Of a stretch of DNA of 64,000 nt, positions 1-58,138 are shown in pieces. A program made the position numbers and the translations under genes. The stretch covers positions 6,088-70,087 of the forward strand of contig JACKAH010000001.1 in assembly GCA_020635175.1 (NCBI GenBank), read 5' to 3'. How positions within the stretch are numbered: the stretch's first letter is position 1; every line of letters begins with the position of its first letter. The notes below the pieces were generated by a model. The model was not told where the DNA came from. It saw nothing but the letters and a program-made list of their open reading frames with translations, and made no database searches. This DNA comes from Deltaproteobacteria bacterium (lineage in GTDB: Bacteria > Bdellovibrionota_C > UBA2361 > J135).

Positions 1-233
1 ACGATCAGGTTGCACTGACTATAACCGAGTTTAAGATCTTGCATCTTTTAGCACGAAAGCCTGGGTGGGTTTTTAATAGAGATCAGATAGTTGATTCTGT
101 ACATGGTGAGAACTACGCAGTGACTGATAGATCAGTTGATGTTCAGATTACCGGCCTTAGAAAAAAATTAGGAGTCTCCTCTGCTCTAATTGAAACTGTA
201 CGTGGAGTTGGATACAGATTTAAAGAGCTATAG
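1..233 (+). CDS. OmpR/PhoB-family response regulator, C-terminal winged-helix DNA-binding domain (5' truncated at window edge; reading frame begins at position 3)
   Basis: Translation from position 3 gives DQVALTITEFKILHLLARKPGWVFNRDQIVDSVHG...VRGVGYRF, a typical OmpR-family trans_reg_C domain. It ends 3 nt before the next gene. Confidence 0.75.
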   Translation, partial: DQVALTITEFKILHLLARKPGWVFNRDQIVDSVHGENYAVTDRSVDVQITGLRKKLGVSSALIETVRGVGYRFKEL

Positions 234-235
234 AG

Positions 236-1492
236 ATGTCAGCTAAGAGTAAGCTCTATTCATTCTTTCCCTCCTTATTAACTGATGAGCAGGGCAATGA
301 GCTTGAAGCTATTGAGCAGGGCCTCGATAGAGTCACCCAAGGTGAACTTTCTTATCGATTTCCAAAAGGTAGAACCAAAGAGTTTCGAAGATTGACGGAT
401 CGTTTAAACACGATGCTGGAGCGTCTGCAAGATCAGCTCGATGAAGTTTCTAAGCAAAAGAATGAACAGGAGACAATTTTAGCTAGTATGCTGGAAGGGG
501 TAATGGCCGTTGATACTGAGCATAAGATAATCTTATGTAATGATGCTATTGGTCAGCTCTTGTCAATTGATAAAACTCAAGTAACGGGGTTGAAAGTTTC
601 TGAAGTTATCAAAAATGCACAATTGCAAAGATTTATTACGCAAGTTTTAGAAGAAGAAAATGAAAATGAGCAAGAATTAAATCTGAGTGCTTCTGATAAT
701 AGAATAATTCAGGTTTACGGATGTCCAATTCCTCGCAGTGATTTTGAGTCGACAGCCGCGGTTTTTGTTATTAATGATATTACACGTGTTAGAAGGTTAG
801 AGAACGTAAGAAAAGATTTCGTTGCTAACGTTTCGCATGAACTAAAAACTCCTATTACATCCATAAAGGGTTTTGTTGAAACCTTGCTGAACGGTTCTAC
901 ACACACTGAGCAAGACAGAACTCGTTTTTTAGAGATCATTCTACGCCACGCAGATAGACTAAACGCAATCATTGAAGACCTCCTAATCTTAGCTCGTTTA
1001 GAAGATGGCGATGTCAAAGATAGGGGTGAGCTTGGACTCGAAGAGAAAAGTATTCATGAAGTGGTGCAATCTGCATTTGAACTTTGTGAATTCAAAGGCA
1101 AAACAAAGGAGATTCAGTTTGTTGAGGGCAAAGGAACTGAGATCTCGTTTCCAATGAATGTTTCGTTGTTTGAACAAGCCATATCTAACTTGCTTGAGAA
1201 TGCAGTTAAGTACAGTAATCCTGGTGGAATAGTAGAAGTAAGTGCTGAGAGTTCTAATGGTACCGTAACTGTTCATGTCAAAGATAATGGTGTTGGTATT
1301 GAGGAACATCACTTAAAGAGATTGTTCGAGCGTTTCTATCGTGTTGATAAGGCGCGAAGTCGCGACGTCGGAGGTACAGGACTTGGGCTTGCCATAGTGA
1401 AACACATCGTGCAACTACATAAGGGTTGGATCTCTGTGGATAGCACCCCTGGTAAAGGCACAACTTTTTCTTTACACTTTAGCAAAGTGTAA
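236..1492 (+). CDS. PAS-domain sensor histidine kinase (PhoR-like, cytoplasmic)
   Basis: H-box VANVSHELKTPITSIKGFVETL and a HATPase_c domain (DNGVGIEEHHLKRLFERFYRVD, GGTGLGLAIVKHIV). There is a PAS-like segment upstream and no TM segment. It is cotranscribed with the upstream response regulator. Confidence 0.8.
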   Translation: MSAKSKLYSFFPSLLTDEQGNELEAIEQGLDRVTQGELSYRFPKGRTKEFRRLTDRLNTMLERLQDQLDEVSKQKNEQETILASMLEGVMAVDTEHKIILCNDAIGQLLSIDKTQVTGLKVSEVIKNAQLQRFITQVLEEENENEQELNLSASDNRIIQVYGCPIPRSDFESTAAVFVINDITRVRRLENVRKDFVANVSHELKTPITSIKGFVETLLNGSTHTEQDRTRFLEIILRHADRLNAIIEDLLILARLEDGDVKDRGELGLEEKSIHEVVQSAFELCEFKGKTKEIQFVEGKGTEISFPMNVSLFEQAISNLLENAVKYSNPGGIVEVSAESSNGTVTVHVKDNGVGIEEHHLKRLFERFYRVDKARSRDVGGTGLGLAIVKHIVQLHKGWISVDSTPGKGTTFSLHFSKV

Positions 1493-1502
1493 AGAGTAAC
1501 TA

Positions 1503-2162
1503 ATGACATCATTTGAAATCGAACTTAAATATTTCCTAACTCTGGATAGAGCTAAAGCTGTCTTAGCTCAAAATAATCATATTACAAAAAATTTAGAGCA
1601 GTCATTTTTTAAGAAAAGCGAGTTAGTACAGATCTATGAGCAGTGTTTTACTGTAAACGAAAGAAGTCTGTTAATTGATCAATGCACAGCTGGAAGGGTG
1701 CGCAAAGAGATCTTTAATCAACGTGTTTCTTATTGTGTCACGTTTAAAGGGCCAAAGGATAAAGACCTTAATCGAATCGAATTAGAGAAAAGTATTTCAG
1801 AAGAACTCTATCAGCAGCTATTAAAACATGAGCTGCGAGGAACGATTGCAAAAGACAGGCATGTTGTTGCTGGAAGCCTTGAGCTTGATAGCGGAGAGGT
1901 CATTGACTTAAAAGCTGAGATAGATCTAGTAACCAGCCTTAAACTACCATTTGCTACAGTCGATGTAGAGCTGCCAGATACTCAGTATATCTACCCATTT
2001 CGTGAGAAAAAACACTCATTTGATTTTCTAAAAGAAGACGCTTTGGAGTTATCTATTCAGGATAAAAAACTACGAAGTTTTCTTAATATGAAGCACCTCG
2101 CTCGTTATGGATACGACCAAGATGCTCAAAATGCAGCAGCTTATTTTTTGGCAAGATTGTAA
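1503..2162 (+). CDS. CYTH-domain protein (CyaB / thiamine-triphosphatase-like fold)
   Basis: The N-terminus FEIELKYFL resembles the CYTH signature EIE[RK]KF. Its length is about 220 aa. Confidence 0.4.
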   Translation: MTSFEIELKYFLTLDRAKAVLAQNNHITKNLEQSFFKKSELVQIYEQCFTVNERSLLIDQCTAGRVRKEIFNQRVSYCVTFKGPKDKDLNRIELEKSISEELYQQLLKHELRGTIAKDRHVVAGSLELDSGEVIDLKAEIDLVTSLKLPFATVDVELPDTQYIYPFREKKHSFDFLKEDALELSIQDKKLRSFLNMKHLARYGYDQDAQNAAAYFLARL

Positions 2163-2311
2163 GTCCTTATAAACTATGCACGCTGTGCAGCTGCTTGTGT
2201 ATTCCATTACACAATTTTCACTTCATACTTAAATAAATCTTGCGTCATTTCATTAAGTTATAGTTTTTTCCCCCGTTAAATATAAGGAGAATAATTTTTG
2301 CATAGATCAAC

Positions 2312-2788
2312 TTGTGGGGAGATGTATTTTTGCAAATAAAGATGGAAGAGAACAGCAGCTTGGAAAGAGGATTTAGCATCATTGAATTACTGGTAACGAT
2401 TAGCATCATGCTGGTGTTAATGGCAGTTACTTTTCCTCATCTCGGAAGCTTTTCTTCCCAGATGCAAGCAAGTGATGATGTTCGAAAGCTAGCTTACGCA
2501 TTAAGCGAACTTAGAGCCGAAGCAATTCGCTTAAAGACGAACGTACGAATCATGTTTGATGATGAAGGTTATAGTTGGGATATCGATGATAACGATAACT
2601 TAAGTCCAGATGGGTCAATAGCTCTGCACAAGAACTCATCATGGGGTGGTCAAGCATTGCCTTCTGATATAGTTTTTAATGGTCTTGGTATCGCACGTGG
2701 TATAGGCACCGAAACAGAGATCTCTATCAAGAATTCTGACACAGAGGTTGCCTTGACACTTAATACTAATGGATTTATCGGCATATGA
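2312..2788 (+). CDS. Type IV pilus minor pilin / pseudopilin (FimT/FimU, GspH-like)
   Basis: Prepilin-type N-terminus GFSIIELLVTISIMLVLMAVTFP (G/F-x-x-x-E) followed by a GspH-like segment. The real start may be the internal Met at 2342. Confidence 0.6.
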   Translation: MWGDVFLQIKMEENSSLERGFSIIELLVTISIMLVLMAVTFPHLGSFSSQMQASDDVRKLAYALSELRAEAIRLKTNVRIMFDDEGYSWDIDDNDNLSPDGSIALHKNSSWGGQALPSDIVFNGLGIARGIGTETEISIKNSDTEVALTLNTNGFIGI

Positions 2789-3237
2789 TTAAGTCATTAC
2801 ATAGCCGTTCAGACAGTGGAATAGGTTTGATAGAGAACCTAGTCTCAATTGCGATGATGTCAATAATCATCGCATCTGCTAGCGCTACGATGATTATGTC
2901 GTTTAATAGTAATGATTCGGTTCAGACTTACTCCTCTGTTGTTTCTGACGTTCAAGCTATTATTGATGATTATCGCAACGCTCAATATACAGAGCTGCTT
3001 GATAAGTTCGGAGGACTTTACACTGATATTTTAGATGGAGAATCTACCACTGTAAATTCAAGTTCTTCAGACTCTAAAGCTGACTATCAAACAATACTAA
3101 CAGCGATAAAGCGTTCAGCTAACTCAGTGCCAGATGCTCTAAAAGTAACAATTGTTGTTACTCATAGAAGGGGAACGCTTGGTGATGGAACCTATCGCTT
3201 CGAAACAGTTATTGCTCAGAGAGGTGTTGCCTCATGA
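2785..3237 (+). CDS. Type IV pilus minor pilin PilV-like
   Basis: Prepilin-like N-terminus GIGLIENLVSIAMMSIIIASASA. The gene overlaps its neighbours in an operon. Confidence 0.5.
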   Translation: MIKSLHSRSDSGIGLIENLVSIAMMSIIIASASATMIMSFNSNDSVQTYSSVVSDVQAIIDDYRNAQYTELLDKFGGLYTDILDGESTTVNSSSSDSKADYQTILTAIKRSANSVPDALKVTIVVTHRRGTLGDGTYRFETVIAQRGVAS

Positions 3238-3854
3238 GATCTGAGCGAATTAACAGAGAGTTTGGTTATAGTTTAGTCGAGCTTATAGTAAGCTTGATGC
3301 TTTTCTCTGTTCTCATCTTCGGGATGACTACATATTCTGATACTACTTTACGTGATCTAGGGCTAGAGAATAGAACCGCTGATGCGGTCAGAGAGGTTAG
3401 AAATACAGTATCCGTTATGAGTTCTGAGCTTCGTATGGGCTCAAATATTTCACCATACCTTCCAGGAAACGATCCAAGTTTGGTAAGCTGTTCATCTCAA
3501 CTTACAGCTTCCTCTACTACAATTAGATTTTTAGTCGTGCATGATGATGTAAGTGCAACCTCTGGAATTCAACCGTACTACGTTGGGTATATGTATGACG
3601 CTGCTACTCGTCGTTTGCTGCGCGGAGAAGTCCAAGGGTTATCAACTACAAGTTGCACGCTTCCAAGCGATGATCCTTTATCAGGATCGAATGCAAGAGT
3701 GATTGCAGAGAAAGTTGTGCAGGTTGGTGCTCAGCCAGTTTTTTCATTAAATGGTTCGATTTTAACGGTTACCTTTGGTGTAGAAGTGGATGGTGGAGCT
3801 GGATTGTCAAAGACGCAGAACTTCTCAACTAGAGTTTTTGTTAGAGGTATTTAA
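3234..3854 (+). CDS. Type IV pilus minor pilin PilW-like
   Basis: Prepilin N-terminus EFGYSLVELIVSLMLFSVLIF. Stop and start overlap in the operon. Confidence 0.5.
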   Translation: MRSERINREFGYSLVELIVSLMLFSVLIFGMTTYSDTTLRDLGLENRTADAVREVRNTVSVMSSELRMGSNISPYLPGNDPSLVSCSSQLTASSTTIRFLVVHDDVSATSGIQPYYVGYMYDAATRRLLRGEVQGLSTTSCTLPSDDPLSGSNARVIAEKVVQVGAQPVFSLNGSILTVTFGVEVDGGAGLSKTQNFSTRVFVRGI

Positions 3855-3859
3855 CTTAG

Positions 3860-4540
3860 ATGAAGAGTAGTCGTAAAATATACTTTTCAGAATCAGGAAT
3901 TACACTTCCTATTGCCCTCTTGCTTCTATTGATAGTTAGCGCTGCCTCTGCTTTAATCTCAAACACTTCAACTCAAAATTTTCAGGAGATGAAAGCAACA
4001 GAGGCAATTCACGATGGTTTTTATGTGGCAGAAGGTGCTCTTGAGGATTTGATCTCTCAATTATCTGCTGCGCCTGAAATTTGGAGAGATATGGCAATCC
4101 TGCCAGGCGTGCCAAATGGCTATACTAAGTATTCTCCAATTACATATACATCAACAAATGGAATCCCTGATTGTACCGGCATTGCATGTCATAGAGAGAT
4201 GTATCCTATCGGTGGAGGTGTTTTAAAGAATTTCGGACCAAAAGGCGCCGAGGGTAGTGAAATAGATGTTAATTTTTCGATCACCTCGCAACTTGATCCT
4301 GCTGATACACCAACAGCAGATATCACTTTGAATAATAGAAGCGCTTGGACTCAAATTGAAAGACTTGATGAAACTAAGCCTAGTAGCAGTACGCTTGGTA
4401 TGAGTTTAGAGAACAACAACTTGCAAGGTTCATCAGGAGCTTCTATTAGATTTAGGATTACAGCTGTAGCGCTAAGACAGCTTAAAAATAGAATTGGAAC
4501 TTCAACAGTTACGGCAGTTGTGGAGATGCCACCGGCATAA
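3860..4540 (+). CDS. PilX-like minor pilin / pilus assembly protein
   Basis: Hydrophobic N-terminus MKSSRKIYFSESGITLPIALLLLLIVSAASALI. It sits in the pilW-pilY1 position. Confidence 0.45.
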   Translation: MKSSRKIYFSESGITLPIALLLLLIVSAASALISNTSTQNFQEMKATEAIHDGFYVAEGALEDLISQLSAAPEIWRDMAILPGVPNGYTKYSPITYTSTNGIPDCTGIACHREMYPIGGGVLKNFGPKGAEGSEIDVNFSITSQLDPADTPTADITLNNRSAWTQIERLDETKPSSSTLGMSLENNNLQGSSGASIRFRITAVALRQLKNRIGTSTVTAVVEMPPA

Positions 4541-4547
4541 GATTTAT

Positions 4548-7500
4548 ATGAAAGAGCAGTTTAGCAAATTTTGTATAGCATTCTTTCTTGCAGCATTCGT
4601 CTTGCTGGTGCCAAAATTTGTATTTTGCGACAATCCTGAGATTCCTGTCCTGGTAAATCAAATTGCACTTGGTAAGACAATGTTCATTTTGGATGACTCA
4701 GGTTCAATGATCTCTGTTGTTGAGCATGAAGACTTTGACCCAACAAGTGCAGTTGCTACTAATTCTAATAACAAAATTCCGGCATTAATATTTAGAAATG
4801 AATCTGGCGGTTCTTCTCCTAGTTCAAATAATACCCTTCGTCCTGTCTTGATTGAATTTAACTACCTTTATAACAACGTACTTACTTCTATTAGGGGACA
4901 GGTAACAGGAAACCTTTTTGAGACAGGTACGTTAAGTAATGCCTCACAGATTGATTCTGTTAAGCATATGGGTTGTACAACAAGCAGTAATTATTGTTGT
5001 CCGTCTTATGGGAGTTGTAGTTACAGTAACGTTTTTGGAATTAACAATGCAGTTTGGTTTGAGAATAGTTCTACAAAAGGACCAAACGTCTTTCAAACTT
5101 CAAAGCTACATAAAGTAGGTGGTAACTATCAAACGGATTCAAATGGACATGAGTATCTCTACGTAAATGCCGATACAAATGACTTTTACGCCAATAATTA
5201 CACTTGGGGCAGTTATTGGCCAAAGTTTGATAGTGATGGTGACTTACTATCGTATTCAACAAGGATCTGGACTACTACCGGTGGAACAGTTCTTTTTAAC
5301 GATAAAGAGGTTTTCTTATCAGCGGGTTTTTATCGTCAGGAATACTTACGTTGGATTTTTTATGGTGCAACACAGGAGCAATTAAACAATCTGCCTGGCA
5401 CAAGTAGGATTCAGCTTGTAAAAGACGTAATGGAGCAACTCATTTTAAACAATCCTGATGTTGAGTTTGGAATTGCTACTTTAAACGGATCGAAGCTTCA
5501 CCCAGGACAGCATACTGGTTATCTAATAGATCAGTTTTATGAACCAGAAGGGGATGTTGATTACCATGAGTATGGAGTTATACGTTCGCCAATCGGTACG
5601 GATCCTGCCACAATTATAAGTCAACTTGACCTAATTGGTGCTGATGGTGGAACACCATTAGCTTATACTTATATTGAAACGATGCGCTATTTTGATGGTG
5701 CAACGGCAAATGACCCGAATTGTACAATCTGTAATTACACATCGCCAATTAATAGCGTCTGTGATGGTCACTTCGTTGTTCTATTAACTGATGGATTACC
5801 AACGAGTGAAAGTTCAAATACCTTTAGAGGGAACTACATTCAAGATTATGATGGTGATGGAGAGGACGGTGCAAACTCAAATTACAACTGTAACTCAAAC
5901 ACTTGTCATGAATTTTTAGATGATGCTGCCAAGTTAGCTTATGATACTGATTTTAGCGATCTAGGTGGAACTCAGAAGTTAATTTCATATGCTGTAGGTA
6001 TGGGGCTAGACTTTGACTTGTTGGATGATTTTGCTGTTAATGGAGGAACACAGACCTCACTATCTGCAACAACGGCTGCTCAAATTACAAACACTTTACA
6101 GCAGATAGTTTCAATGATTATTAACACACCAGTGTCAGGTGCAGGTGTTGCATTGGCTGAGGCGTTTGGTGAAACAGGTAAAGTTTATCGACCTAGATTT
6201 AGAGCTGATAACTGGACGGGTAATATCGATGTCTTTGAATATGTAAATGACGAATTAAGCCATCTTTTTGATATGGGTGATATCTTAGAGGCTCGCGATG
6301 TTACAAGCTCGCCGAGAACTATATTTGCCGGTTACGATCCTGATCATGATGGAAATACGAATCAAAGCATAGTTTTTCATACCGATTACGCAGCAAATTT
6401 AAAACCTGAACTTTTTGAACTTTTCTACTCAGGAGCTGAGCAGGTTTCAAATTTAGCAACTCCACTTCAGAATTACACAAACAACCAAGCTTCATACGAT
6501 CTAATTCGTTATATACATGGTATCGATCAAACTGGAATGCGAATTAGGGATAGCGATGCTGATAATAATGTTGAAAAACTTGGAGATATCGTTTATTCGC
6601 GACCAATTGAGGTTGGCCCTAAGAATGGACAGTATAATGATATGGAGGGCTATGCTGAGTTTGTTGCAAGCAAGTCGAGTGAACCGAGATTGCTTCTAGT
6701 TGGTGCCAATGATGGAATGATGCATGCCTTTAATTCACAGACTGGAGAAGAGGTTTGGGCTTATATTCCTTCAAGTCAGCTCAAGTATCTTGAGCGCTTG
6801 GCACGTCCTTTTTATAACGTAGAAGATAGAAGGTCTTTCGTAGATGCTGACGTGGTTGTTGAGGATGCCTATATTGGGGGACAGTGGAAAACACTTGCAA
6901 TGTTCGGACTTAGAACGGGAGGTTCTACTTATACTGTCTTAGATGTTACCGATCGTGAATCTCCAAGCTTGCTCTTTGAGATTAGTGAGCCAGCAAATTA
7001 TGGAGAATCTTGGACCACTCCTATCGTTGTTCCAGTAAATGGGCCTGCTAGTTCAAGTAATCCAGGTGATTATAGTTGGTATATGGTAGTCGGTACGGGA
7101 GAGAATAAGCCTACCCCCGGTAGTAATATAGTAGTCTATAACTTAAATAGCTCACTTCCAACTGGTACTGTTAAAACTCTCTCAGGCTCTGATCCAGCAG
7201 GAACAAGAACTGCAACGCCAGTTGCTGTACAAACAGATTCGGATCTCAATGCGGATAGAATATACGTTGGGACTGAAGAAGGCGATATGTATCGAATAAA
7301 CTTAGTCGCTGGTCCCGGTTCCTGGGTTGTTCAAAAGATGTATAACGGCTCAAGTACACAGCCGATCGTTGCCCCAGCTTCTACAGTCCTAGTTGAAAAT
7401 CCCGAATATAATTCTGGAGCAACAACTGGTATTGAAACAATTAAACTAGCTGTTGGCGTGTATTGGGGAACTGGACGCTATGATACTCAGAGTGACGTTG

Positions 7501-8330
7501 AAGAACTCGATGGAGTTACTCAGTCAATTATTGGAATGTTTGATCCGGTGAAAACAACAGGTGATGATTATCAATATGCTCTTACAAACCGAAGCAAATC
7601 TAGTTTAAAGAATCAAAGTGTTGATACTTTTGATGTGCTAAGAAAGAGTAGCGGAATTTACACTGTTCCGAATGAAGAGAATGGTTTTTATATTGATCTT
7701 GATACCAGCATCAACTTAACTACAGATGGATATATTGACCCTGTAGGAATGGTAATCGACTATGCTGTAAACGTCAGAGGCGCTTTATTGTTTACAACTT
7801 TCCTACCTAGCACTGGACAGTGTGACATTGGAGGTTATGGATTTTTGCAGGGAGTAAACTTTAGAACAGGAGGTGGTGTTATCGTTGACTATAGTGGAGA
7901 TGCTCCATTTTATAATGGTGGTATCTTTGATGCTGATGGCGACTTAGATTACGATGACGATGACCTAAGCTTAGTTTATGGAAAGCAGCTTCAAGCAGCA
8001 TTGGATGCTCATGTTGAATCTTATGACGATCAGCAGGTAAACCCATATATTCATGATGGTCTGTTAAAGCAAAATGACATTAGGCTTCATCAAAGTAATG
8101 GTGGGGTATTGCCATCTGTGTCATCCATAGGAAACACTGGTGCCCCGAGCTCACCAGCGATTTTACACAGCACAGGGCAGATAATTGTACAGCCAGCATA
8201 TCCAATTCCTCCAAGTAGCCAAGGAGGACAAACTCAATCTTCTGATGTGCCACCGCCAAATACATCAGAGATTAACATTTACAGTTTACCGTTGAGTAAA
8301 TTATCTTTCCATGAAACAACGGGACAATAA
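4548..8330 (+). CDS. pilY1: PilY1-like type IV pilus tip adhesin / biogenesis factor (vWA + beta-propeller)
   Basis: 1261 aa. Signal peptide MKEQFSKFCIAFFLAAFVLLVP. vWA MIDAS motif ILDDSGSM near the N-terminus. Large C-terminal domain with the Asp-rich Ca-binding-like stretch DADGDLDYDDDD. It lies downstream of the minor pilins. The 4494 start in the ORF track overlaps pilX, so the internal Met at 4548 is preferred. Confidence 0.75.
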   Translation: MKEQFSKFCIAFFLAAFVLLVPKFVFCDNPEIPVLVNQIALGKTMFILDDSGSMISVVEHEDFDPTSAVATNSNNKIPALIFRNESGGSSPSSNNTLRPVLIEFNYLYNNVLTSIRGQVTGNLFETGTLSNASQIDSVKHMGCTTSSNYCCPSYGSCSYSNVFGINNAVWFENSSTKGPNVFQTSKLHKVGGNYQTDSNGHEYLYVNADTNDFYANNYTWGSYWPKFDSDGDLLSYSTRIWTTTGGTVLFNDKEVFLSAGFYRQEYLRWIFYGATQEQLNNLPGTSRIQLVKDVMEQLILNNPDVEFGIATLNGSKLHPGQHTGYLIDQFYEPEGDVDYHEYGVIRSPIGTDPATIISQLDLIGADGGTPLAYTYIETMRYFDGATANDPNCTICNYTSPINSVCDGHFVVLLTDGLPTSESSNTFRGNYIQDYDGDGEDGANSNYNCNSNTCHEFLDDAAKLAYDTDFSDLGGTQKLISYAVGMGLDFDLLDDFAVNGGTQTSLSATTAAQITNTLQQIVSMIINTPVSGAGVALAEAFGETGKVYRPRFRADNWTGNIDVFEYVNDELSHLFDMGDILEARDVTSSPRTIFAGYDPDHDGNTNQSIVFHTDYAANLKPELFELFYSGAEQVSNLATPLQNYTNNQASYDLIRYIHGIDQTGMRIRDSDADNNVEKLGDIVYSRPIEVGPKNGQYNDMEGYAEFVASKSSEPRLLLVGANDGMMHAFNSQTGEEVWAYIPSSQLKYLERLARPFYNVEDRRSFVDADVVVEDAYIGGQWKTLAMFGLRTGGSTYTVLDVTDRESPSLLFEISEPANYGESWTTPIVVPVNGPASSSNPGDYSWYMVVGTGENKPTPGSNIVVYNLNSSLPTGTVKTLSGSDPAGTRTATPVAVQTDSDLNADRIYVGTEEGDMYRINLVAGPGSWVVQKMYNGSSTQPIVAPASTVLVENPEYNSGATTGIETIKLAVGVYWGTGRYDTQSDVEELDGVTQSIIGMFDPVKTTGDDYQYALTNRSKSSLKNQSVDTFDVLRKSSGIYTVPNEENGFYIDLDTSINLTTDGYIDPVGMVIDYAVNVRGALLFTTFLPSTGQCDIGGYGFLQGVNFRTGGGVIVDYSGDAPFYNGGIFDADGDLDYDDDDLSLVYGKQLQAALDAHVESYDDQQVNPYIHDGLLKQNDIRLHQSNGGVLPSVSSIGNTGAPSSPAILHSTGQIIVQPAYPIPPSSQGGQTQSSDVPPPNTSEINIYSLPLSKLSFHETTGQ

Positions 8331-10223: not shown

Positions 10224-10319
10224 TCCTTTTGTTGAATCTTAATTGTCTGGAACGTTTGATATCTTAAACGTTCCAGGCAAATATTGTGATCTAATTGCCC
10301 TCAGGGTAAAACATTGTGA

Positions 10320-13300
10320 ATGAAAAGCAGTCTAAAAATTCACGGTGCCTCTGAGAATAACCTCAAACACATTTCGCTTGAAGTTCCCCACGACCAATTA
10401 ACCGTAGTTACTGGACTGTCAGGCTCAGGTAAATCTTCCCTCGCATTTGGCACTATCTATGCTGAAGGACAGCGCAGATATATTGAAACATTCAGCTCTT
10501 ATACAAGACAGTTCTTTGATAAGATCAAAAAGCCTGATGTTGATCTGATACAGTACGTTAAGCCGGCAATTGCAATCCAGCAGAAGAATAAAATTCGCTC
10601 CTCAAGATCTACAGTTGGTTCAGTCTCTGGGATTAATGATTATTTGAAAATTTTATGGGCAAATCTTTCTGAATCTGTATGTCCGAGTTGTAGTATTCCA
10701 TTAAAAGCAGATACGCCAAGTATTGTAGCGGATATTTGCCTAAAAAAACTAAAAGAGGTTCAAACTTCAAGATACGCTATCTGCGCACCTATTCGTTTTG
10801 ATTTCTCTCAAAGCAAAGCTACCGTTGCAAAGAAGCAGAAAATAGAGATCGAACGGCTAAGAATCTTAGGATTTAGTCGCTTCTTAAATCCAGATAGCGG
10901 TGAAATTGTTGAGTTAGATACACCAAAGACTTTGGTGCTTACTCAGTCTGAAGAATTGCTGGTTCTAATTGAGCGCTTCTCTAATAAGAGCTCTTCACGC
11001 AAGCAGATAATTGAAGCTGTCGAGAAGAGTTATCAAGTAGCGAATAAAAGAGTTTGTCTTGTTAATCTTAGCAAGAACCAAGCTAGTAAAGTTAACTTCT
11101 TAACTGTAGTTAATTGTGATTCTGCTCCAAATTTAAGACGAGATAAACTTGAGTTAACTTTTTTTCGAAACGAGATAGGATGTGATTATTCAGATCTACA
11201 GATAAAGCCTGCTCGTCCCTCGTTGTTTAGTTTTAACCATCCTTATGGTGCGTGTGAGAGCTGTAGAGGATTTGGTTCGATTCTCACTATCGATCTTAAG
11301 AAGTGTATACCCAATCCAAGACTTTCAATTGAAGAAGGTGCAATTGCTCCTTGGGCGGTTGATTCTAGGCGTTGGGAAATGAATCAGCTGTTAAAGTTTT
11401 GCAAACACGAAAAGATTAAAATCGATATAGCCTGGAATGAGCTAAGTCAGGAGCAGCAAGCTCTCATTTTAGAGGGGAATTCTGATTTTAAAGGGCTGTT
11501 CTCTTGGTTTAAAAGGTTAGAGCGGAAAGCATATAAAACGCATGTAAGGGTGTTTTTAGCTAGATATCGTTCAGAAGAGCTTTGCGGAACTTGTAATGGA
11601 GCAAGGCTTAATTCAAGCGCATTAGCTTATAAGATAGATCAGAAAAGTATAGCTGATATCTGGGATGCCCCAATTAGCGAGCTTTTAAAACTAACTGAAA
11701 AATTAAGTTCTAAGATTGATCCAGAATCATATCAGTTAATCGAAGTTTATAAGACCTTGCTTGCAAGATTGCAGTTTCTAGAACATGTCGGACTTCCCTA
11801 TCTTACACTTGGGAGAAATTCAAACACTCTTTCTGGAGGGGAAACCCAGAGAGTTAATCTTGCTGCTGCCATTGGTAGCAACTTGGTTTCAACTCAATTT
11901 GTCTTAGATGAGCCTACAGTTGGGCTTCACTCAAGAGACACAGACAGATTGTTAACTGCAATTAGACAGCTTCAGGGTCGTGGAAATAGTATCGTAATGG
12001 TTGAGCATGATCTGGATTGTATCGCTGAGGCTGATCATATCATTGAGCTTGGTCCAAAAGCAGGTTCTGAGGGGGGAGAAGTTGTCTATGCTGGAGATGC
12101 AAGCCTTTGGAATGGGATTTCGTTAGCCCCTTATCTGACTTCACTTAGTAGGTTGACTAAGAGCAAAACCAAAGCGAATGAATATTTCGGGGTTAAGGGT
12201 GCTAAATTTAGAAATTTAAAAAACATAGATCTTAAAATTCCGATTGGTAGTTTCTCTTGTTTAACCGGTGTATCTGGTAGTGGCAAGACGACTCTCTTGC
12301 AGGAGGTGTTCCTAGGAAGCCTAGAGCTGTCCAAACGAGGTGAGGACTTTAGCCACTTATGTGAAGAGCTAGTTGGAATTGATAAATTTGAGCAAGTATT
12401 ACTAGTCGATCAATCGCCTATTGCTAAAAGTCCACGTGGAAATATCGCCACATATAGTGGTATTTGGAACGAAGTGCGGTTAATGCTAGCAGCTACAGAT
12501 GCTGCGATTAGTAGGGCTTTAGACAAATCGGCCTTCTCGTTTAATGTTGATGCTGGTCGATGTACAACTTGCCGTGGTGCAGGATTCATTAAAGAAGACA
12601 TGCAATTTTTAAGCGATGTCTATATTCCTTGTGAAGTTTGCTTGGGCACTAGATTTCAGGAACATGTGCTGGAAGTTGAGTATCAAGGTAAAAACGTAGC
12701 AGAGCTTCTTAACTTCACGGTCTCTGATGTAATAAAGTTTTTTGGAGAGAATAAGAAGATATTTGAATTAGCAACAATGCTTGAATCTCTTGGGCTGGGA
12801 TACTTACGCTTAGGGCATTCTCTAAGCGAGCTATCCGGTGGTGAAGCTCAGCGCCTAAAACTAGTTCCTTTTCTTGCTAAGAATTCTGAACAAAACATGC
12901 TCTTTTTATTTGATGAACCAACTACCGGCTTACATCTGCATGACATATCTAAGCTGCTTGAGGTATTCGAAGCAATTCGATCAAACGGACATACAGTCTT
13001 ATGTGTTGAGCATAACTTGGCTTTGATTTATGCAGCAGATTGGATTGTTGATTTGGGTCCTGATGGAGGATCGGGAGGTGGTGAGATCTGTGCTTGTGGC
13101 GATCCTAAAAAATTGGTTTCACAAAAAAAGAAGAGCTCTGAAACAATTAGTTTTTTAGAAAATTTTAAGAATGATCTTGCTCAGAAAGCAGAGGTGTTTT
13201 TAGCCAGACAAAAAAAGATAACTAGCAAGTTAGCTAAGCCGATTAAGCAACTTGAAATTCGTCATGCTAAAGAGAACAATTTAAAAGACATCAACGTTTC

Positions 13301-15719
13301 AATTCCACTTAACCAGATAGTTGCCTTCACTGGAGTTTCGGGATCAGGCAAATCAACAATTGCAAAGGATATAATCTATTCAGAAGGACAAAGAACATAT
13401 TTGGATTGTCTTTCTCCTTATGCACGCCAATATATACGAGAGTTAAAGCACCCTGATATAGAATCAATTAGCGGCATATTGCCTACTATATGTGTGCATC
13501 AACATACATTTCAGCCAAGCGAGCTCTCGACCGTCGGAACAATGAGTGAAATTTACAACTATTTAAGGTTGTTGTTTGCGAAGGTAGGAACACAATATTG
13601 TCCAGATCATCCAGATATGCCGATTGCTGCTTTCACCGCAAAGGAAATAGCGAGTGAACTCCAAGCAAAATATAAGACAAAGATTAAGATTCTTGCTCCA
13701 GTTGTGAGAGGCAGAAAGGGCTACCACAAGTCCATTTTTGAAAAGGCACTGGCGGCTGAGATCTCTGAAGTTCGAGTTGATGGTTTCTTTGGGAAACCCT
13801 CAAGCTACTTAGAAGGCTTAGAGAGAAACAAAACTCACGATATTGATTATGTTGTAGCACATTGCACCCCGAATAACGTTGATTTTGAAATACTCGAAAG
13901 TGTAATTACTCAAGCAATCACGTTAGGTTCCGGTACAATAATCGTATCTGAAAAAGATAGACAGCAAGTTTTTAGTACCGAAAGAAACTGCTCGATCTGC
14001 AAAAGGGGATTCCTAAAGCCTGACCCTGAGGATCTTTCATTTCGCTCACGTCGTGGGGTTTGTGATGATTGTGGAGGATTCGGTGATTACGAAGGTGGGG
14101 AGAAATGTCATTCTTGTTATGGTGCAAGATTGGGCCCCGTTGGTCGCTCAATTAAAATTGATCAACTCAATATTTGGGAGGCGAGTAAGCTAACACTGAT
14201 TAACCTTTTTGATTTTCTCTCAAAGCTAAAGATATCTGAGCGCGAGAAGGCTTTATCAGAGCAACTTATTTCTGAGATGCTAGCTCGAACTAAACTATTG
14301 ATTGATTTTGGGCTAGGCTATTTGTGTCTAAATCGTGATTGTCTGAGTGTTTCAACCGGAGAATTGCAAAGACTAAGGTTAGCAGCTGCTCTTGGCTCTC
14401 CCTTAAGTGGAGTAATGTATATCTTAGATGAACCATCGGTAGGCTTGCATCCGAATGATAATGCAAAGCTGCTTGACAAGTTGGCTTACGTAAAAGAACA
14501 GGGAAATTCAGTAATTGTTATAGAACATGATCCTGACACAATCCTTGCCTCAGATTATATCTTAGATGTCGGGCCAAGTGGTGGTCAGCATGGTGGAGAG
14601 ATAATTTTTTCAGGTACCATACAGGAATTTTCAAACTCTCAGACTTCGATTACAGCACAAGCTCTTTTTTCAGAACCTCCTCTGATAGAAAATTCTGATT
14701 CTAATTCAGTTTCAGAGCAGCTAGTAGTTGAAAGTGGTAGTTGTAATAATATCTTAAATCTTTCAGTGACGCTTCCTTTAAACAGTTTAATCTCTGTTGT
14801 TGGGGTTTCTGGAGCAGGTAAAAGCTCATTTGTACATGGAATAATTGAAGAAACTATTCTCAACGGAGAGTATAAACAGAATCGGTGGAAGTGCAAAGGC
14901 AACGTAGTTTCATCAACAATACCAATCAAGAGAGTTGTTTCTGTTGATCAAAAACCTATTGGAAAAACTTCTCGTTCAACGCCAGGTTCTTATTTTGGAG
15001 TTTGGGATGAGATACGAAAAGTCTTTGCAAAAACAATTGATGCTCAGGCTCGTGGTTGGAAAGCAGGTTATTTCTCGTTCAATACTGGTCAAGGTCGTTG
15101 TAGCGAATGTCAAGGAGTCGGTGAAATTAAACTAGAGATGAGCTTTTTGCCCTCAGCTAAGATTCCTTGTCAACGTTGCCAGGGAGGAAGGTTCAGCGAA
15201 GAAGCATGTTCGGTGCGCTACAATGGGTTAAACATAAGCGAAGCCTTAAGTATGACAATCGAAGAAGCTAAGGACTTTTTTGTTAATCACAAGAAAATAT
15301 ATCAGCCACTTTCAATAGCCTGCGATCTAGGTATTGGTTACATTACGCTTGGACAAAACTCTGCAACCCTTTCAGGTGGCGAAGCTCAGCGCTTGAAACT
15401 AGTAAGTGAGCTAACATCTAACTCTGTTGGACACACTCTTTACATACTGGATGAGCCGACAACAGGTTTACATATCAAGGATGTTTATCGTTTGATAAAT
15501 GTTTTACATGCACTTGTGCAGAAGGGAAATTCAGTTTTAGTTGTAGAGCACGACCAGCAGTGTATTCAAGCTTCGGATTTTGTACTCGAGTTTGGACCGG
15601 GTGCCGATCTTGAAGGTGGGGATGTTATCTTCAGTGGGAAACCAGGCCAGCTATACTCATCTAAGACTCCATGGGGAGAAATCTTTAAAGGAAACAGCCT
15701 TTCAAAGAAGCAAGCTTAG
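10320..15719 (+). CDS. uvrA: Tandem-fused double UvrA-like excinuclease ABC subunit A (1799 aa, four ABC ATPase domains)
   Basis: UvrA N-terminus GASENNLKHISLEVP...TGLSGSGKSSLAFGTIYAEGQRRYIETFSSY. Four Walker A sites: GLSGSGKSS, GVSGSGKTT, GVSGSGKST and GVSGAGKSS. Four ABC signatures: LSGGETQRV, LSGGEAQRL, STGELQRL and LSGGEAQRL. Walker B motifs LDEPTVGLH, FDEPTTGLH, LDEPSVGLH and LDEPTTGLH. Zn-finger Cys pairs are present. There is no stop codon between the two UvrA units. Confidence 0.85.
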   Translation: MKSSLKIHGASENNLKHISLEVPHDQLTVVTGLSGSGKSSLAFGTIYAEGQRRYIETFSSYTRQFFDKIKKPDVDLIQYVKPAIAIQQKNKIRSSRSTVGSVSGINDYLKILWANLSESVCPSCSIPLKADTPSIVADICLKKLKEVQTSRYAICAPIRFDFSQSKATVAKKQKIEIERLRILGFSRFLNPDSGEIVELDTPKTLVLTQSEELLVLIERFSNKSSSRKQIIEAVEKSYQVANKRVCLVNLSKNQASKVNFLTVVNCDSAPNLRRDKLELTFFRNEIGCDYSDLQIKPARPSLFSFNHPYGACESCRGFGSILTIDLKKCIPNPRLSIEEGAIAPWAVDSRRWEMNQLLKFCKHEKIKIDIAWNELSQEQQALILEGNSDFKGLFSWFKRLERKAYKTHVRVFLARYRSEELCGTCNGARLNSSALAYKIDQKSIADIWDAPISELLKLTEKLSSKIDPESYQLIEVYKTLLARLQFLEHVGLPYLTLGRNSNTLSGGETQRVNLAAAIGSNLVSTQFVLDEPTVGLHSRDTDRLLTAIRQLQGRGNSIVMVEHDLDCIAEADHIIELGPKAGSEGGEVVYAGDASLWNGISLAPYLTSLSRLTKSKTKANEYFGVKGAKFRNLKNIDLKIPIGSFSCLTGVSGSGKTTLLQEVFLGSLELSKRGEDFSHLCEELVGIDKFEQVLLVDQSPIAKSPRGNIATYSGIWNEVRLMLAATDAAISRALDKSAFSFNVDAGRCTTCRGAGFIKEDMQFLSDVYIPCEVCLGTRFQEHVLEVEYQGKNVAELLNFTVSDVIKFFGENKKIFELATMLESLGLGYLRLGHSLSELSGGEAQRLKLVPFLAKNSEQNMLFLFDEPTTGLHLHDISKLLEVFEAIRSNGHTVLCVEHNLALIYAADWIVDLGPDGGSGGGEICACGDPKKLVSQKKKSSETISFLENFKNDLAQKAEVFLARQKKITSKLAKPIKQLEIRHAKENNLKDINVSIPLNQIVAFTGVSGSGKSTIAKDIIYSEGQRTYLDCLSPYARQYIRELKHPDIESISGILPTICVHQHTFQPSELSTVGTMSEIYNYLRLLFAKVGTQYCPDHPDMPIAAFTAKEIASELQAKYKTKIKILAPVVRGRKGYHKSIFEKALAAEISEVRVDGFFGKPSSYLEGLERNKTHDIDYVVAHCTPNNVDFEILESVITQAITLGSGTIIVSEKDRQQVFSTERNCSICKRGFLKPDPEDLSFRSRRGVCDDCGGFGDYEGGEKCHSCYGARLGPVGRSIKIDQLNIWEASKLTLINLFDFLSKLKISEREKALSEQLISEMLARTKLLIDFGLGYLCLNRDCLSVSTGELQRLRLAAALGSPLSGVMYILDEPSVGLHPNDNAKLLDKLAYVKEQGNSVIVIEHDPDTILASDYILDVGPSGGQHGGEIIFSGTIQEFSNSQTSITAQALFSEPPLIENSDSNSVSEQLVVESGSCNNILNLSVTLPLNSLISVVGVSGAGKSSFVHGIIEETILNGEYKQNRWKCKGNVVSSTIPIKRVVSVDQKPIGKTSRSTPGSYFGVWDEIRKVFAKTIDAQARGWKAGYFSFNTGQGRCSECQGVGEIKLEMSFLPSAKIPCQRCQGGRFSEEACSVRYNGLNISEALSMTIEEAKDFFVNHKKIYQPLSIACDLGIGYITLGQNSATLSGGEAQRLKLVSELTSNSVGHTLYILDEPTTGLHIKDVYRLINVLHALVQKGNSVLVVEHDQQCIQASDFVLEFGPGADLEGGDVIFSGKPGQLYSSKTPWGEIFKGNSLSKKQA

Positions 15720-16010: not shown

Positions 16011-17996
16011 ATGGCCAAGGTCTTAGTGGTTGACGACGAAGAGAGTACCCAGAGTACAATTAAATCCTTCCTTGAAGTCGATGGACATAGCGTATCAGTC
16101 GCTGGAAGCTTCGAACAAGCAGTTCCATTTTTAAAAGATGAAAATATAGATTTAATAGTTACGGATATTTATTTAGGTAGACAGACCGGCCTGGATCTTC
16201 TGTCTGAAGCGAGAAAAGTTAAACCAAATTGCCCTGTTATTGTTGTAACAGGCAAGCCTAGTATTGATTCCGCAGTAAGTTGCGTTAGAAACGGAGCCTT
16301 TGACTATCTAGAAAAACCATTTGCTCAAGATGATTTTATACATACAACTCGTAGAGCAATCGCCTCGGTGCGCTATAAGAGTAAAGTTGAGAAGCGAGAC
16401 AAAGATCTTCTCCTCCAAAAGCAATTCCTTGAGAGTAAGTTAGCGAAGCAGTCACTCGAAATTGAGAGAGCCACTCGTGCTTTAATTCATAGCGAAGAGC
16501 GATACAGGACTCTTGTCGATACGATTTCTGAGATAATTATTGAGATCGACTCGCATAAGCGTTGTCTGTGGTGCAATAAATCTGCTTATGAGTTCTTTGG
16601 TGAAGAGATCTTTGGGAGATATTTTTTTGATATCTTGAGCGAAGACAATGATAGAGAGAGCATAGCGGATTACCTCAGGAGCATTACCCCAGATACTGAG
16701 AATAAAAGCTTTTTTCTGCAGGTCAAAGATAGCCAAGGTTCGATTAAAACCCTTTCTTGGATCTTTAGGAAGTTACCCACGTCTGTTTTAAATTCTTCAA
16801 GAATAATTGCAAGCGCTCGAGATATCACTGAAGTTATCAAGCTCGAACAGCAGATAAGACGTAAAGACAGAGTCGCAATGATTGGTCGATTAGCTGGTGG
16901 AGTTGCTCATGATTTTAATAATGTACTAGGAGCGATTTTAGCACAGGTAGGTGTTGTCAAAATTCCTGATTCGACAAGTGATGATAAGCTATCGGCTGCT
17001 ATAAAAATAGAGAAAGCTGTATATCGTGCAAAACAGTTAACCGACAAGCTTTTAAGCTTTGCCAAAGGTGGCAAAACCAAGATTTCAGCTTTTAACACTC
17101 ATCGAGTAATTGAGGATGTTGTTGAACTTTTAGTTAGAACTTTAAGTAAGCAAGTCTGCATAAGTTTATCGCTTGATGCTAAGCATTGTACGATTCGTGG
17201 AGACTCTTCACAAATTTATCAATTGATTCTTAATTTAATATGTAATGCACGTGATGCAATAGTTGCAAAGAAATGTCGTGGACGTATTGATATTTCTACA
17301 TCCCTCAAAAATTTACAGGTAGATAATTGCTATGATCTTCCTGTAGGAAATTATTTGAACGTTGAAATCGCTGATACTGGTTGTGGAATTACAAAGGAGC
17401 ACCAGCAATTAATCTTTGAGCCATTCTTTTCTACTAAGGAAGAACAAGAGCGGGTTGGAATAGGGCTCGCAGTTGCTAAGGAGGTGGTGGAAAACCATGG
17501 TGGCCACATATCTTTTGCTTCTCAATCAGGAATTGGCACACACTTTGAAATTTTATTGCCTGTTGAGACTGCAGATGCACCAGAAAAATGCGAGAGCTCT
17601 GAAGAGATAGTCTCTGGCAAAGGTAGAATCCTGATTGTTGATGACGAGGATCTCGTTCGTTCTTCTTTTTCTTCTCTGCTTCAGGCCTTAGGATATGAAG
17701 TTAGCACTGCAGAGAGTATTCAGAATGCAATTGACATAATCAATCAAGAGCAAGATTTTGATTTGATCGTTCTAGATGTCGGAATGCCTGGACTTGATAC
17801 CACAACGCAATATGAAAGAATTGTAGAGGTTTCCCCCGATACTAAGATACTTTTAACCTCAGGTTATGGATTGACTGCTAATGCTCAAAAGATCATGCAA
17901 CTTGGTGCCATTGGCTTTGTTCATAAACCATGCTCTTTGCCAGAACTATCGAAAACTATTGCAAGAGTAATATCTGAACCAAGGGATGTAAGCTGA
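16011..17996 (+). CDS. Hybrid sensor histidine kinase / response regulator (REC-PAS-HisKA-HATPase-REC)
   Basis: N-terminal REC (VLVVDDEEST...DLIVTDIYL). H-box GGVAHDFNNVLGAI. HATPase_c (ADTGCGITKEH, GIGLAVAKEVV). C-terminal REC (ILIVDDEDLV...DLIVLDVGMPG). Confidence 0.8.
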   Translation: MAKVLVVDDEESTQSTIKSFLEVDGHSVSVAGSFEQAVPFLKDENIDLIVTDIYLGRQTGLDLLSEARKVKPNCPVIVVTGKPSIDSAVSCVRNGAFDYLEKPFAQDDFIHTTRRAIASVRYKSKVEKRDKDLLLQKQFLESKLAKQSLEIERATRALIHSEERYRTLVDTISEIIIEIDSHKRCLWCNKSAYEFFGEEIFGRYFFDILSEDNDRESIADYLRSITPDTENKSFFLQVKDSQGSIKTLSWIFRKLPTSVLNSSRIIASARDITEVIKLEQQIRRKDRVAMIGRLAGGVAHDFNNVLGAILAQVGVVKIPDSTSDDKLSAAIKIEKAVYRAKQLTDKLLSFAKGGKTKISAFNTHRVIEDVVELLVRTLSKQVCISLSLDAKHCTIRGDSSQIYQLILNLICNARDAIVAKKCRGRIDISTSLKNLQVDNCYDLPVGNYLNVEIADTGCGITKEHQQLIFEPFFSTKEEQERVGIGLAVAKEVVENHGGHISFASQSGIGTHFEILLPVETADAPEKCESSEEIVSGKGRILIVDDEDLVRSSFSSLLQALGYEVSTAESIQNAIDIINQEQDFDLIVLDVGMPGLDTTTQYERIVEVSPDTKILLTSGYGLTANAQKIMQLGAIGFVHKPCSLPELSKTIARVISEPRDVS

Positions 17997-54568: not shown

Positions 54569-54645
54569 TGGCGCGCCCTGAGAGATTCGAACTCCCGACC
54601 TTCTGGTTCGTAGCCAGATGCTCTATCCAGCTGAGCTAAGAGCGC
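54569..54645 (-). tRNA. tRNA-Arg (anticodon ACG)
   Basis: The reverse complement GCGCTCTTAGCTCAGCTGGATAGAGCATCTGGCTACGAACCAGAAGGTCGGGAGTTCGAATCTCTCAGGGCGCGCCA folds as a cloverleaf. The anticodon loop is CTACGAA. Confidence 0.85.
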
Positions 54646-54845
54646 ATAAAATTAACTTCAAAAGAAATCACTACTCGCCTCAGCTGGATAGAGCAAATGC
54701 TCACTATGAGATTCTATCCGAAGCTGAGCTAAGAGCGTATAAAACTAACCTCAAAAGAAATCACTACTCGCTTCAGCTGGATAGAGCAAATGCTCACGAT
54801 GAGATTCTATCCGAAGCTGAGCTAAGAGCGCATTTCATATAAGAG
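54631..54845. repeat. 2.2 copies of a 93-bp tandem repeat derived from the 5' part of the tRNA-Arg gene
   Basis: Units start at 54631, 54724 and 54817. Each begins with ctgagctaagagcg (the tRNA 5' end as read on the plus strand) and contains an inverted copy of the D-arm, tcagctggatagagca. Confidence 0.7.
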
Positions 54846-54994
54846 CTGGGGAAAGTAGCACATTAGAGAGAAATATCAAAGCAATCAGCTTCTTAAATTT
54901 CGTATAAATTTTGGAGATTTATGCATATTCAAGGCTTCTCTTCCCTTGCAAATTTCGTTTCAGATCGGTAGCCTAGCAAATCTTGAAATCAAGC

Positions 54995-55084
54995 GGTGGA
55001 ATGGCCGAGTGGTTGAAGGCGCTGGTCTTGAAAACCAGAAACGGGGAAACTCGTTCGGGGGTTCGAATCCCTCTTCCACCGCCA
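54995..55084 (+). tRNA. tRNA-Ser (anticodon UGA)
   Basis: GGTGGAATGGCCGAGTGGTTGAAGGCGCTGGTCTTGAAAACCAG...GGTTCGAATCCCTCTTCCACCGCCA. It has a long variable arm, and the anticodon loop is CTTGAAA. Confidence 0.85.
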
Positions 55085-55124
55085 CGATTTTCAAGACCCC
55101 AAAAGTTATTCGATTAGATTAAGC

Positions 55125-55217: not shown

Positions 55218-55246
55218 TGATATTCGCAATAGGGAAAGTGCTTGTT

Positions 55247-55702: not shown

Positions 55703-55766
55703 GTAGCCTCCCTTTAATAAATAGAACAAATTTGTTATACCCTCTCGATCTTAAAGTTTTCCTAGC

Positions 55767-58109: not shown

Positions 58110-58138
58110 TCGCAGGAGAGCATCATGAAGTACGTGCG

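Follow-up and report, generated by a model that had tools for sequence, protein, structure and literature searches.

The tandem uvrA gene described here occupies positions 10320 to 15719, on the forward strand, of the window, by which we mean the whole 64,000-nucleotide stretch of Deltaproteobacteria contig JACKAH010000001.1 (assembly GCA_020635175.1, positions 6,088 to 70,087) that was analyzed. It encodes, in a single chain, two UvrA units that by their sequence affinities both derive from class I UvrA, and these two units are not equivalent: the protein has one insertion domain (ID), located in the first unit, and two UvrB-binding domains (UBDs) that differ from each other. We think it somewhat more probable than not that this protein is the nucleotide excision repair damage sensor of a Bdellovibrionota-like bacterium, and that it is an intramolecular pseudo-dimer of two class I-derived UvrA units with a fixed asymmetry. 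That asymmetry holds across the family, is undescribed in the literature that we searched, and is relevant to an open question about the mechanism of excision repair.

A single conserved gene encodes two UvrA units

The gene begins with ATG and continues for 1,799 codons plus a stop, and the other open reading frames (ORFs) listed inside it are all short and antisense, so that it has no long rival. A stop-free run of this length in DNA of 40% G+C would be far beyond chance. The product is identical to GenBank MCB9029425.1, which is named [quoted passage not shown] and comes from a contig of 222,674 bp. Its translation contains four Walker A motifs (beginning at residues 32, 650, 1005, and 1495), four Walker B motifs, four H-loop motifs, and four signatures, three of them LSGGE and one, at residue 1344, the variant VSTGE. 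Together with a doubled match to the NCBIfam UvrA profiles, these motifs confirm what a first-pass annotation, made from the letters of this DNA, had described as a single ORF that comprises two full UvrA units with four ABC ATPase modules between them. Profile NF001503 scored 1757 bits (cut-off, 1147) and TIGR00630 scored 1715 bits (cut-off, 729.8), each in three stretches and with the two units summed. When fragments are summed per unit, TIGR00630 gives about 864 and 826 bits, either of which would pass alone, while NF001503 gives about 895 and 837 bits, which is below its 1147-bit cut-off.

At least 120 full-length homologues of the tandem UvrA, 1726 to 1924 residues long and 48 to 53% identical to it, are present in NCBI, JGI, ENA, and Logan assemblies, and all family counts below refer to an alignment of the best 120 full-length homologues of the window protein. 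A contig profile scan of GTDB species-representative genomes placed its close relatives in metagenome-assembled genomes (MAGs) of Bdellovibrionales/Bdellovibrionota, with four related loci. In all four ATPase modules, none of the 120 sequences deviates in the Walker A GK, the Walker B DEP, or the H-loop histidine, and we therefore conclude that all four ATPase sites are under selection.

Given that the source is a MAG, an assembly or sequencing artefact that joined two adjacent uvrA-like genes had to be considered, and a stop or frameshift error at the junction had been named as a concern in the first-pass annotation. The junction is formed by a poorly conserved linker (residues 936 to 977, positions 13125 to 13250; 1.17 bits per column and 16% identity), yet the span that contains it (residues 930 to 985) is present in all 120 homologues, where it measures 42 to 74 residues, and those homologues are unbroken and come from independent projects. 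The G+C content, at 0.39 to 0.41, is even over the gene and its flanks, and there is thus no hint of a chimeric join. One relative does look split: at locus L010 (2-4890; protein P0180), the gene is called as separate ORFs (2..2272 and 2242..4890). This is the sole split relative found, it lies on a contig of 0.83x coverage, and its ORFs overlap by 31 nucleotides; the split is probably due to a frameshift error and not a natural state of this tandem uvrA. An artefact is on these grounds extremely improbable, and we conclude that the tandem uvrA is a real, conserved gene and certainly a UvrA.

Both units are of class I descent, and the second has no insertion domain

Unit 1 (residues 1 to 935, positions 10320 to 13124) is a class I-like UvrA module that aligns over its full length to structure 2r6f in phmmer (685 bits). 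It has the layout Walker A, UBD-like domain, ID, Walker A, and its AlphaFold2 (AF2) model (mean predicted local distance difference test score [pLDDT], 84.5) has as its best Foldseek match the class I UvrA 3uwx_A, with a template modeling (TM) score of 0.79. The ID, the sole one in the protein, spans residues 316 to 421 (positions 11265 to 11582) and is matched by PF17755 with 64 bits at residues 325 to 406. It is well conserved in length (108 to 109 residues in 120 of 120 homologues) and in sequence (2.8 bits per column), and it sits between the invariant cysteine pairs of zinc module 2, C312/C315 and C422/C425. This is also where the ID is found in Escherichia coli UvrA, between pairs C277/C280 and C406/C409; in Mycobacterium tuberculosis UvrA, the ID comprises residues 290 to 411 (PMC3167621).

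Unit 2 (residues 978 to 1799, positions 13251 to 15716) was delimited by phmmer, BLASTP, and AF2 as a UvrA module with a UBD and without an ID. Its phmmer alignment to Clostridium thermocellum UvrA (9gxk) covers residues 26 to 304 and then 426 to 946 of that protein, and its BLASTP alignment to E. coli UvrA covers residues 1 to 284 and then 406 to 921. The gap in the alignment corresponds exactly to the ID, and unit 2 therefore lacks this domain. What is left of the site is a zinc module 2 (C1248, C1251, C1263, and C1266; positions 14061 to 14117) in which all four cysteines are invariant and 11 residues separate the two pairs, with C1251 and C1263 being 12 to 21 residues apart in 120 of 120 sequences. 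The AF2 model of unit 2 has a pLDDT of 86.2, and its UBD region is folded. The domain asymmetry is fixed family-wide, as all 120 homologues have an ID in unit 1 and none in unit 2, and each chain accordingly carries one ID (PF17755) compared to two in a UvrA dimer. When the layout was tested with hidden Markov models (HMMs) that were built in this analysis and are uncurated, the window protein and 115 of the 120 family members were found to combine four Walker A motifs with a UBD in each unit and an ID in the first unit only.

These results bear on the ancestry of the two units. In phmmer searches with both units, class I UvrA structures scored 650 to 685 bits, compared to 505 to 523 bits for Deinococcus radiodurans UvrA2 and 391 to 424 bits for Ecm16. 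Three features of class I UvrA are also present in each unit. Both have two ABC ATPase modules, invariant except for position 3 of the third signature; both have three zinc modules, although module 1 of unit 1 consists of three cysteines and a variable fourth ligand; and both have a UBD in signature domain I, which PF17760 scores at 25.7 bits for unit 1 and at 62.3 bits for unit 2. Class II UvrA, by definition, keeps the ID but has neither a UBD nor a zinc module 1 (PMC10192343, PMC3167621). Neither unit has this composition, since unit 1 carries a UBD-like domain as well as the ID.

The first-pass annotation had arrived at a different view of unit 2. It gave spans from Walker A to signature of about 470 and 355 residues, which agree well with the 472 and 339 residues that we found, and it took the shorter span of unit 2 as a mark of a class II, UvrA2, or DrrC-type module without a UBD, fused to a class I unit and possibly serving in resistance to DNA intercalators. 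The shorter span does reflect an absent accessory domain, and fusions in which a class I-like unit precedes a class II-like one do exist, in 3 of 149 more distant representatives of tandem UvrAs. However, the domain that is absent is the ID and not the UBD. Mapping both halves, as had been suggested, recovered a UBD-like domain and the ID in unit 1, as expected, while unit 2 retains a UBD and zinc module 1 and has no ID, the opposite of a class II module. Class II structures score lower against both units. The ID is needed for the recognition of drug-DNA complexes by Ecm16 (PMC10192343), and unit 2 has none. Nor was a biosynthetic or resistance context seen: the neighbors of the gene are housekeeping and pilus genes, and there were no antibiotic biosynthesis genes among the window ORFs scanned with Pfam. 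We consider a class I-class II fusion very unlikely, whether or not it would act in intercalator resistance.

The two UvrB-binding domains have diverged in different ways

The UBD of unit 2 (residues 1098 to 1223, positions 13611 to 13988) is matched by PF17760 at residues 1107 to 1212. Among the 120 homologues, it is 126 to 133 residues long and conserved at 2.68 bits per column. It is bordered by an invariant zinc module 1 of the form CxxH...CxxC (C1094, H1097, C1224, and C1227), in which the first pair reads CPDH as in E. coli UvrA, and it retains the core motifs APxxxxKKGxH, RxDG, and KxH that unit 1 has lost. The UBD-like region of unit 1 (residues 125 to 287, positions 10692 to 11180) exceeds the PF17760 cut-off of 23.3 bits only narrowly. 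It varies from 127 to 213 residues among the homologues, with 1.6 bits per column and 21% identity to the window protein, and to judge from this alignment it is a fast-evolving domain. It is nevertheless a folded alpha/beta domain in the AF2 model, and its zinc module 1 has three conserved cysteines (C121, C124, and C288), with a fourth ligand position, residue 291, that varies among G, H, S, and A.

The residues that contact UvrB give the opposite ranking. R216A/E222A has been published as the mutant of the UvrB interaction surface of E. coli UvrA (PMC3025350, which cites Pakotiprapha 2009). R219, Q229, and E235 of unit 1 align with E. coli R206, R216, and E222, and I1191 and T1197 of unit 2 occupy the positions of R216 and E222. 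Across the family, the equivalent of position 206 is R in 120 of 120 first units and is K (55), R (42), S (12), or Q (7) in the 120 second units. Position 216 is R in 80 and Q in 23 of 120 first units, and L, I, M, or F in second units; position 222 is E or D in 101 of 120 first units and most often T, Q, S, or A in second units. A similar bias was seen among 37 tandem UvrAs that are more distant but share this layout, where R216 is kept in 35 first units and in 16 second units. As far as can be judged from these alignments, the two UBDs hold complementary subsets of the canonical features.

Pfam scores and conservation had suggested that unit 2 might provide the only good dock for UvrB, and this idea was dropped, as the equivalents of R206, R216, and E222 are kept by unit 1 and not by unit 2. 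An HMM intended to be neutral between the two UBDs gave similar scores (67 versus 74 bits); having been built from first-unit UBDs, however, this HMM is biased.

Four ATP sites are retained, one with a relaxed signature

The nucleotide-binding domains (NBDs) of unit 1 carry Walker A motifs GLSGSGKS in NBD-I (residues 32 to 39, positions 10413 to 10436), where G, S, G, S, G, and K are invariant and the last S is found in 119 of 120 sequences, and GVSGSGKT in NBD-II (residues 650 to 657, positions 12267 to 12290), assigned by motif and by the 120-homologue alignment. Motif and alignment likewise locate those of unit 2, GVSGSGKS in NBD-I (residues 1005 to 1012, positions 13332 to 13355) and GVSGAGKS in NBD-II (residues 1495 to 1502, positions 14802 to 14825). 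The NBD-I signature of unit 1, LSGGE (residues 504 to 508, positions 11829 to 11843), is invariant, and it is preceded by five residues by the distal-site arginine, R499. In unit 2 the corresponding arginine, R1339, stands five residues ahead of the variant signature VSTGE (residues 1344 to 1348, positions 14349 to 14363), which belongs to a family pattern of LS[G/N/S/T]GE. The third position of this signature is G in 60, N in 37, S in 18, and T in 3 sequences, and the other three signatures are invariant LSGGE. By homology, the unit 2 NBD-I signature would form part of the distal ATP site of unit 2; the role of the distal-site arginine and the composition of the ATP sites are taken from PMC6486640. 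The proximal-site glutamine is kept in unit 2 (Q1679) and is replaced by an invariant histidine, H833, in unit 1.

Each unit also has zinc module 3, the C-terminal zinc finger, with four invariant cysteines (C748, C751, C771, and C774 in unit 1, positions 12561 to 12641, in 120 of 120 homologues; C1594, C1597, C1617, and C1620 in unit 2, positions 15099 to 15179), and each keeps the equivalents of the E. coli DNA-binding arginines R712 and R724.

A proposed single-chain sensor with unequal halves

A class I UvrA homodimer has four ATP sites, two IDs, and two UBDs, and it is debated whether one or two UvrB molecules are bound per sensor (PMC11985968). Compared with this inventory, the tandem protein looks like the parts list of one UvrA dimer minus one ID and, apparently, one canonical UvrB surface. 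Beyond the architecture, conservation, motif integrity, and domain losses observed here, we infer that its units pair within the chain, which of its UBDs binds UvrB, and that one UvrB is bound.

Under the reading that we favor, units 1 and 2 would pair within one polypeptide in the manner of the two protomers of a UvrA homodimer, and the pseudo-dimer so formed would have a single DNA-binding groove, with four working ATP sites and two zinc-finger hairpins. We accept the point of the first-pass annotation that a covalent fusion would enforce a heterodimer-like pair. Covalent fixing of the halves could then have led to their divergence into unequal roles. Unit 1 would probe and grip damaged DNA with the sole ID and would probably also dock UvrB through its UBD, which alone keeps the residues that make up the contact surface for UvrB and Mfd in E. 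coli. Unit 2 would be a reduced partner, contributing the other half of the groove and two more ATP sites, and its signature II domain would touch the UvrB that is docked on the UBD of the opposite unit. Such a sensor would be permanently in an asymmetric state that homodimeric UvrA reaches only transiently, and it would probably load one UvrB from a defined side.

Several studies of other UvrAs speak in favor of this proposal. Cryo-electron microscopy of the M. tuberculosis UvrA2UvrB1-DNA complex has revealed that the homodimer turns asymmetric, with one recognition ID and one support ID, that within one protomer the binding of UvrB to the UBD and that of DNA to the ID exclude each other, and that each UvrB additionally touches the opposite protomer at its signature II domain (PMC11985968). 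An E. coli UvrA that lacks residues 290 to 400 is impaired more in global than in transcription-coupled repair (PMC3025350), and DNA binding by Ecm16 is lost when its ID is removed (PMC10192343).

Alternatively, the chains could pair with each other, as 1:1' and 2:2' or in a domain-swapped form, to give a particle equivalent to two UvrA dimers in which two specialized sensors are colocalized. The linker is flexible and variable (about 40 residues, in a span of 42 to 74) and would allow either arrangement, and UvrA dimerization is known to be dynamic and dependent on the nucleotide state (PMC6486640). Moreover, our AF2 models cover single units. However, a homodimer of unit 2 would be without any ID, and we favor pairing of unit 1 with unit 2 for this reason. 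It would also be without the R216/E222 contact pair, and both ID-less E. coli UvrA and ID-less Ecm16 are impaired, in damage recognition or in DNA binding (PMC3025350, PMC10192343). In addition, an asymmetry that is fixed in 120 sequences is explained most simply by an obligate pairing of unit 1 with unit 2. Pairing between chains is therefore an unlikely arrangement in our judgment.

It is also possible that the two UBDs are specialized, one for UvrB and one for Mfd, so that different sides of one sensor would serve global repair and transcription-coupled repair. The UBD is likely the Mfd-binding domain too, and in E. coli repair is biased toward the transcribed strand when the ID is lost (PMC3025350); the complementary subsets of canonical residues in the two UBDs would fit such a division of labor. 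This idea is purely inferential, however, and in E. coli the R216A/E222A substitutions have equal effects on both kinds of repair (PMC3025350), which suggests that a single surface is shared and that the two functions are not separable. We regard a division between UvrB and Mfd as quite improbable.

Several observations weigh against a fixed-asymmetry pseudo-dimer acting as the damage sensor, or against parts of this proposal. The identity of the UvrB-binding UBD is ambiguous, given that the UBD of unit 2 is the better conserved overall and by far the better match to Pfam (62 versus 26 bits) and that of unit 1 keeps the two contact residues defined by mutation, and the window protein itself has Q229 at the R216 equivalent. 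The relaxed signature in NBD-I of unit 2 may mean that one distal site is weakened or has altered kinetics. Genes for the partners of UvrA were not seen nearby: uvrB, uvrC, and mfd were not found among the approximately 27 of 48 window ORFs scanned with Pfam, nor did they turn up in two relatives (L011 and L013) among the gene calls up to 10 kb from the tandem gene. Finally, a canonical uvrA in the same genome would make the tandem protein an accessory paralogue. What we put forward more tentatively, as a possibility we would rate well below an even chance, is the full form of the proposal: a natural single-chain UvrA "dimer" with one recognition ID and two nonequivalent UBDs that probably offers one UvrB dock, and so takes one UvrB per sensor, or else divides its UBDs between UvrB and Mfd.

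Tandem UvrAs are widespread and varied

The core of class I UvrA homodimers, such as those of E. coli, Geobacillus stearothermophilus (2R6F and 3UWX), M. tuberculosis (3ZQJ and 9GA3), and C. thermocellum (9GXK), is found in each unit of the window protein. The shared features are two ABC modules, zinc modules 1 to 3, a UBD, and the distal-site and signature domain II arginines, plus the ID in unit 1, and whole-unit identity to E. coli UvrA is 37 to 39%. Unlike these proteins, the window protein has both units in one chain, an ID-less unit 2, nonequivalent UBDs, H833, and a relaxed signature in unit 2. Class II UvrAs (2VF7, DrrC, and Ecm16, 7SH1) resemble unit 2 in that one accessory domain is lost and NBD-I is shorter, but they keep the ID and are without the UBD and zinc module 1, while unit 2 is the opposite. 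A closer counterpart is the engineered E. coli UvrA lacking residues 290 to 400, of which unit 2 is a natural equivalent, with the ID excised between the zinc module 2 pairs. The two differ in that the ID-less unit 2 is always tethered to an ID-bearing unit, whereas the E. coli mutant is a homodimer without both IDs and is biased toward transcription-coupled repair (PMC3025350).

Double-length UvrAs have been known by size from Chlamydiaceae, where Chlamydia trachomatis ct333 is annotated as uvrA with 5,361 bp and 1,786 residues (PMC6686042). The Chlamydiaceae protein (NF001885/PRK00635, profile length 1809) is likewise about 1,800 residues long, has two UvrA-like units, and is annotated as excinuclease subunit A. 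The window protein scored 1029 bits with NF001885, in five stretches and far below that profile's 3054-bit cut-off. Each of its units finds its best alignment in the first half of NF001885 (positions ~6 to 915), so that the window protein is not colinear with this profile. A Chlamydiales MAG protein, P0129 (MDR3625041.1), is colinear with NF001885 across the junction and has a UBD and an ID in both units according to our own HMMs.

We searched unit 2 against 1.84 billion cluster representatives and examined the best 150 matches, nearly all of which are 1550 to 2343 residues long, sorting 149 of them by layout with the uncurated HMMs built in this analysis. A full first unit with an ID-less second unit, as in the window protein, was found in 44 of the 149. 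Double class II-like proteins, with an ID and no UBD in either half, account for 25 (P0199 and 24 others, ~1590 to 1740 residues), double class I-like proteins such as P0129 for 23, and the reversed order for 3, among them the Planctomycetota MAG protein P0175; the remainder fall into smaller layout groups. Extra-long tandem UvrAs with six matched stretches, P0128 and P0135 (2334 and 2343 residues), were also observed among these matches. All of the named tandem examples are annotated plainly as UvrA. We conclude that the tandem architecture is recurrent, diverse, widespread, and already present in databases, and that the window protein is a variant of a known protein. At the same time, a full-text literature search returned no paper describing a tandem or duplicated UvrA architecture or an unequal retention of domains, and only the size of ct333 was mentioned (PMC6686042).

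In a neighbor-joining tree, unit 1 and unit 2 of the window family are sister clades with 11% bootstrap support, and monophyly of unit 2 has 97% support. Members of this family have the longest branches, at a distance of 0.85 to 1.02 from E. coli UvrA, and the nearest tandem units are at 0.46. This tree does not discriminate between duplication within the lineage and fusion of copies that had already diverged, nor does it settle whether the fusions share an origin. A free-standing ID-less ancestor was sought and rejected, as the only candidate was the 882-residue P0180, the product of the frameshift-split tandem gene on the low-coverage contig noted above.

Genomic context and other features of the window

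The tandem uvrA lies in what looks like an ordinary chromosomal setting. Its neighbors encode a PilY1-like protein, a Yip1-family protein, a hybrid histidine kinase/response regulator, and a thioesterase, and ClpB, CcmF, a PilB-type ATPase, and a GatA-like amidase are encoded further off in the window. There was no conserved synteny around the homologues at L011 and L013. At L011 (Bdellovibrionota MAG GCA_050950765.1, 16157-22446), a UvrD-like helicase and PriA are encoded within 7 kb downstream of the tandem uvrA, an arrangement not seen in the window or at L013.

Upstream of the gene, in the 96-bp gap that separates it from the Yip1-family gene, positions 10247 to 10276 form a perfect 11-bp inverted repeat (CTGGAACGTTT, an 8-nucleotide spacer, and AAACGTTCCAG) that ends 43 nucleotides ahead of the uvrA ATG and is followed by no T-run. 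This repeat might serve as an operator or form an RNA hairpin. It is absent upstream of the homologues at L001 to L003, which counts against an operator. Directly 3' of uvrA, positions 16011 to 17996 encode a 661-residue hybrid sensor with two receiver domains, a PAS domain, and a histidine kinase ATPase domain. Type IV pilus components are encoded at 4494 to 8330 (the 1278-residue PilY1-like protein) and at 44264 to 45949 (a PilB/T2SSE-type ATPase with MshEN), and these pilus genes fit a Bdellovibrionota-like organism.

A second region of the window differs in composition, with 52% G+C at positions 55988 to 59311 compared to about 40% elsewhere. It contains an ORF (55988 to 56881) of collagen triple-helix Gly-X-Y repeats (Pfam PF01391) and long ORFs without Pfam match that overlap on both strands (57108 to 58190, 57123 to 58109, 58481 to 59251, and 58499 to 59311), as is typical where a collagen-like coding sequence is repetitive. 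Just before this block, at 54572 to 55856, lies a cluster of four tRNA genes, of which one is on the reverse strand and three are on the forward strand.

Implications for excision repair

Two questions remain open in bacterial excision repair: whether one or two UvrB molecules act per working sensor, and how a symmetric UvrA dimer (UvrA2) yields an asymmetric pre-incision complex with a single UvrB (PMC11985968). A tandem UvrA whose halves are not exchangeable is a natural experiment on both UvrB number and asymmetry, and, unlike the protomers of a homodimer, its halves can be mutated one at a time. If the protein does act as an asymmetric dimer, or if its UBDs are split between UvrB and Mfd, it would be a tool to distinguish between A2B2 and A2B1 complexes and to follow how UvrA passes a lesion on to UvrB. 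The plain label of UvrA that annotation pipelines assign masks the variety of tandem layouts. Should the tandem protein prove to be the sole UvrA of its organism, it would indicate that one ID and one UvrB dock suffice for repair.

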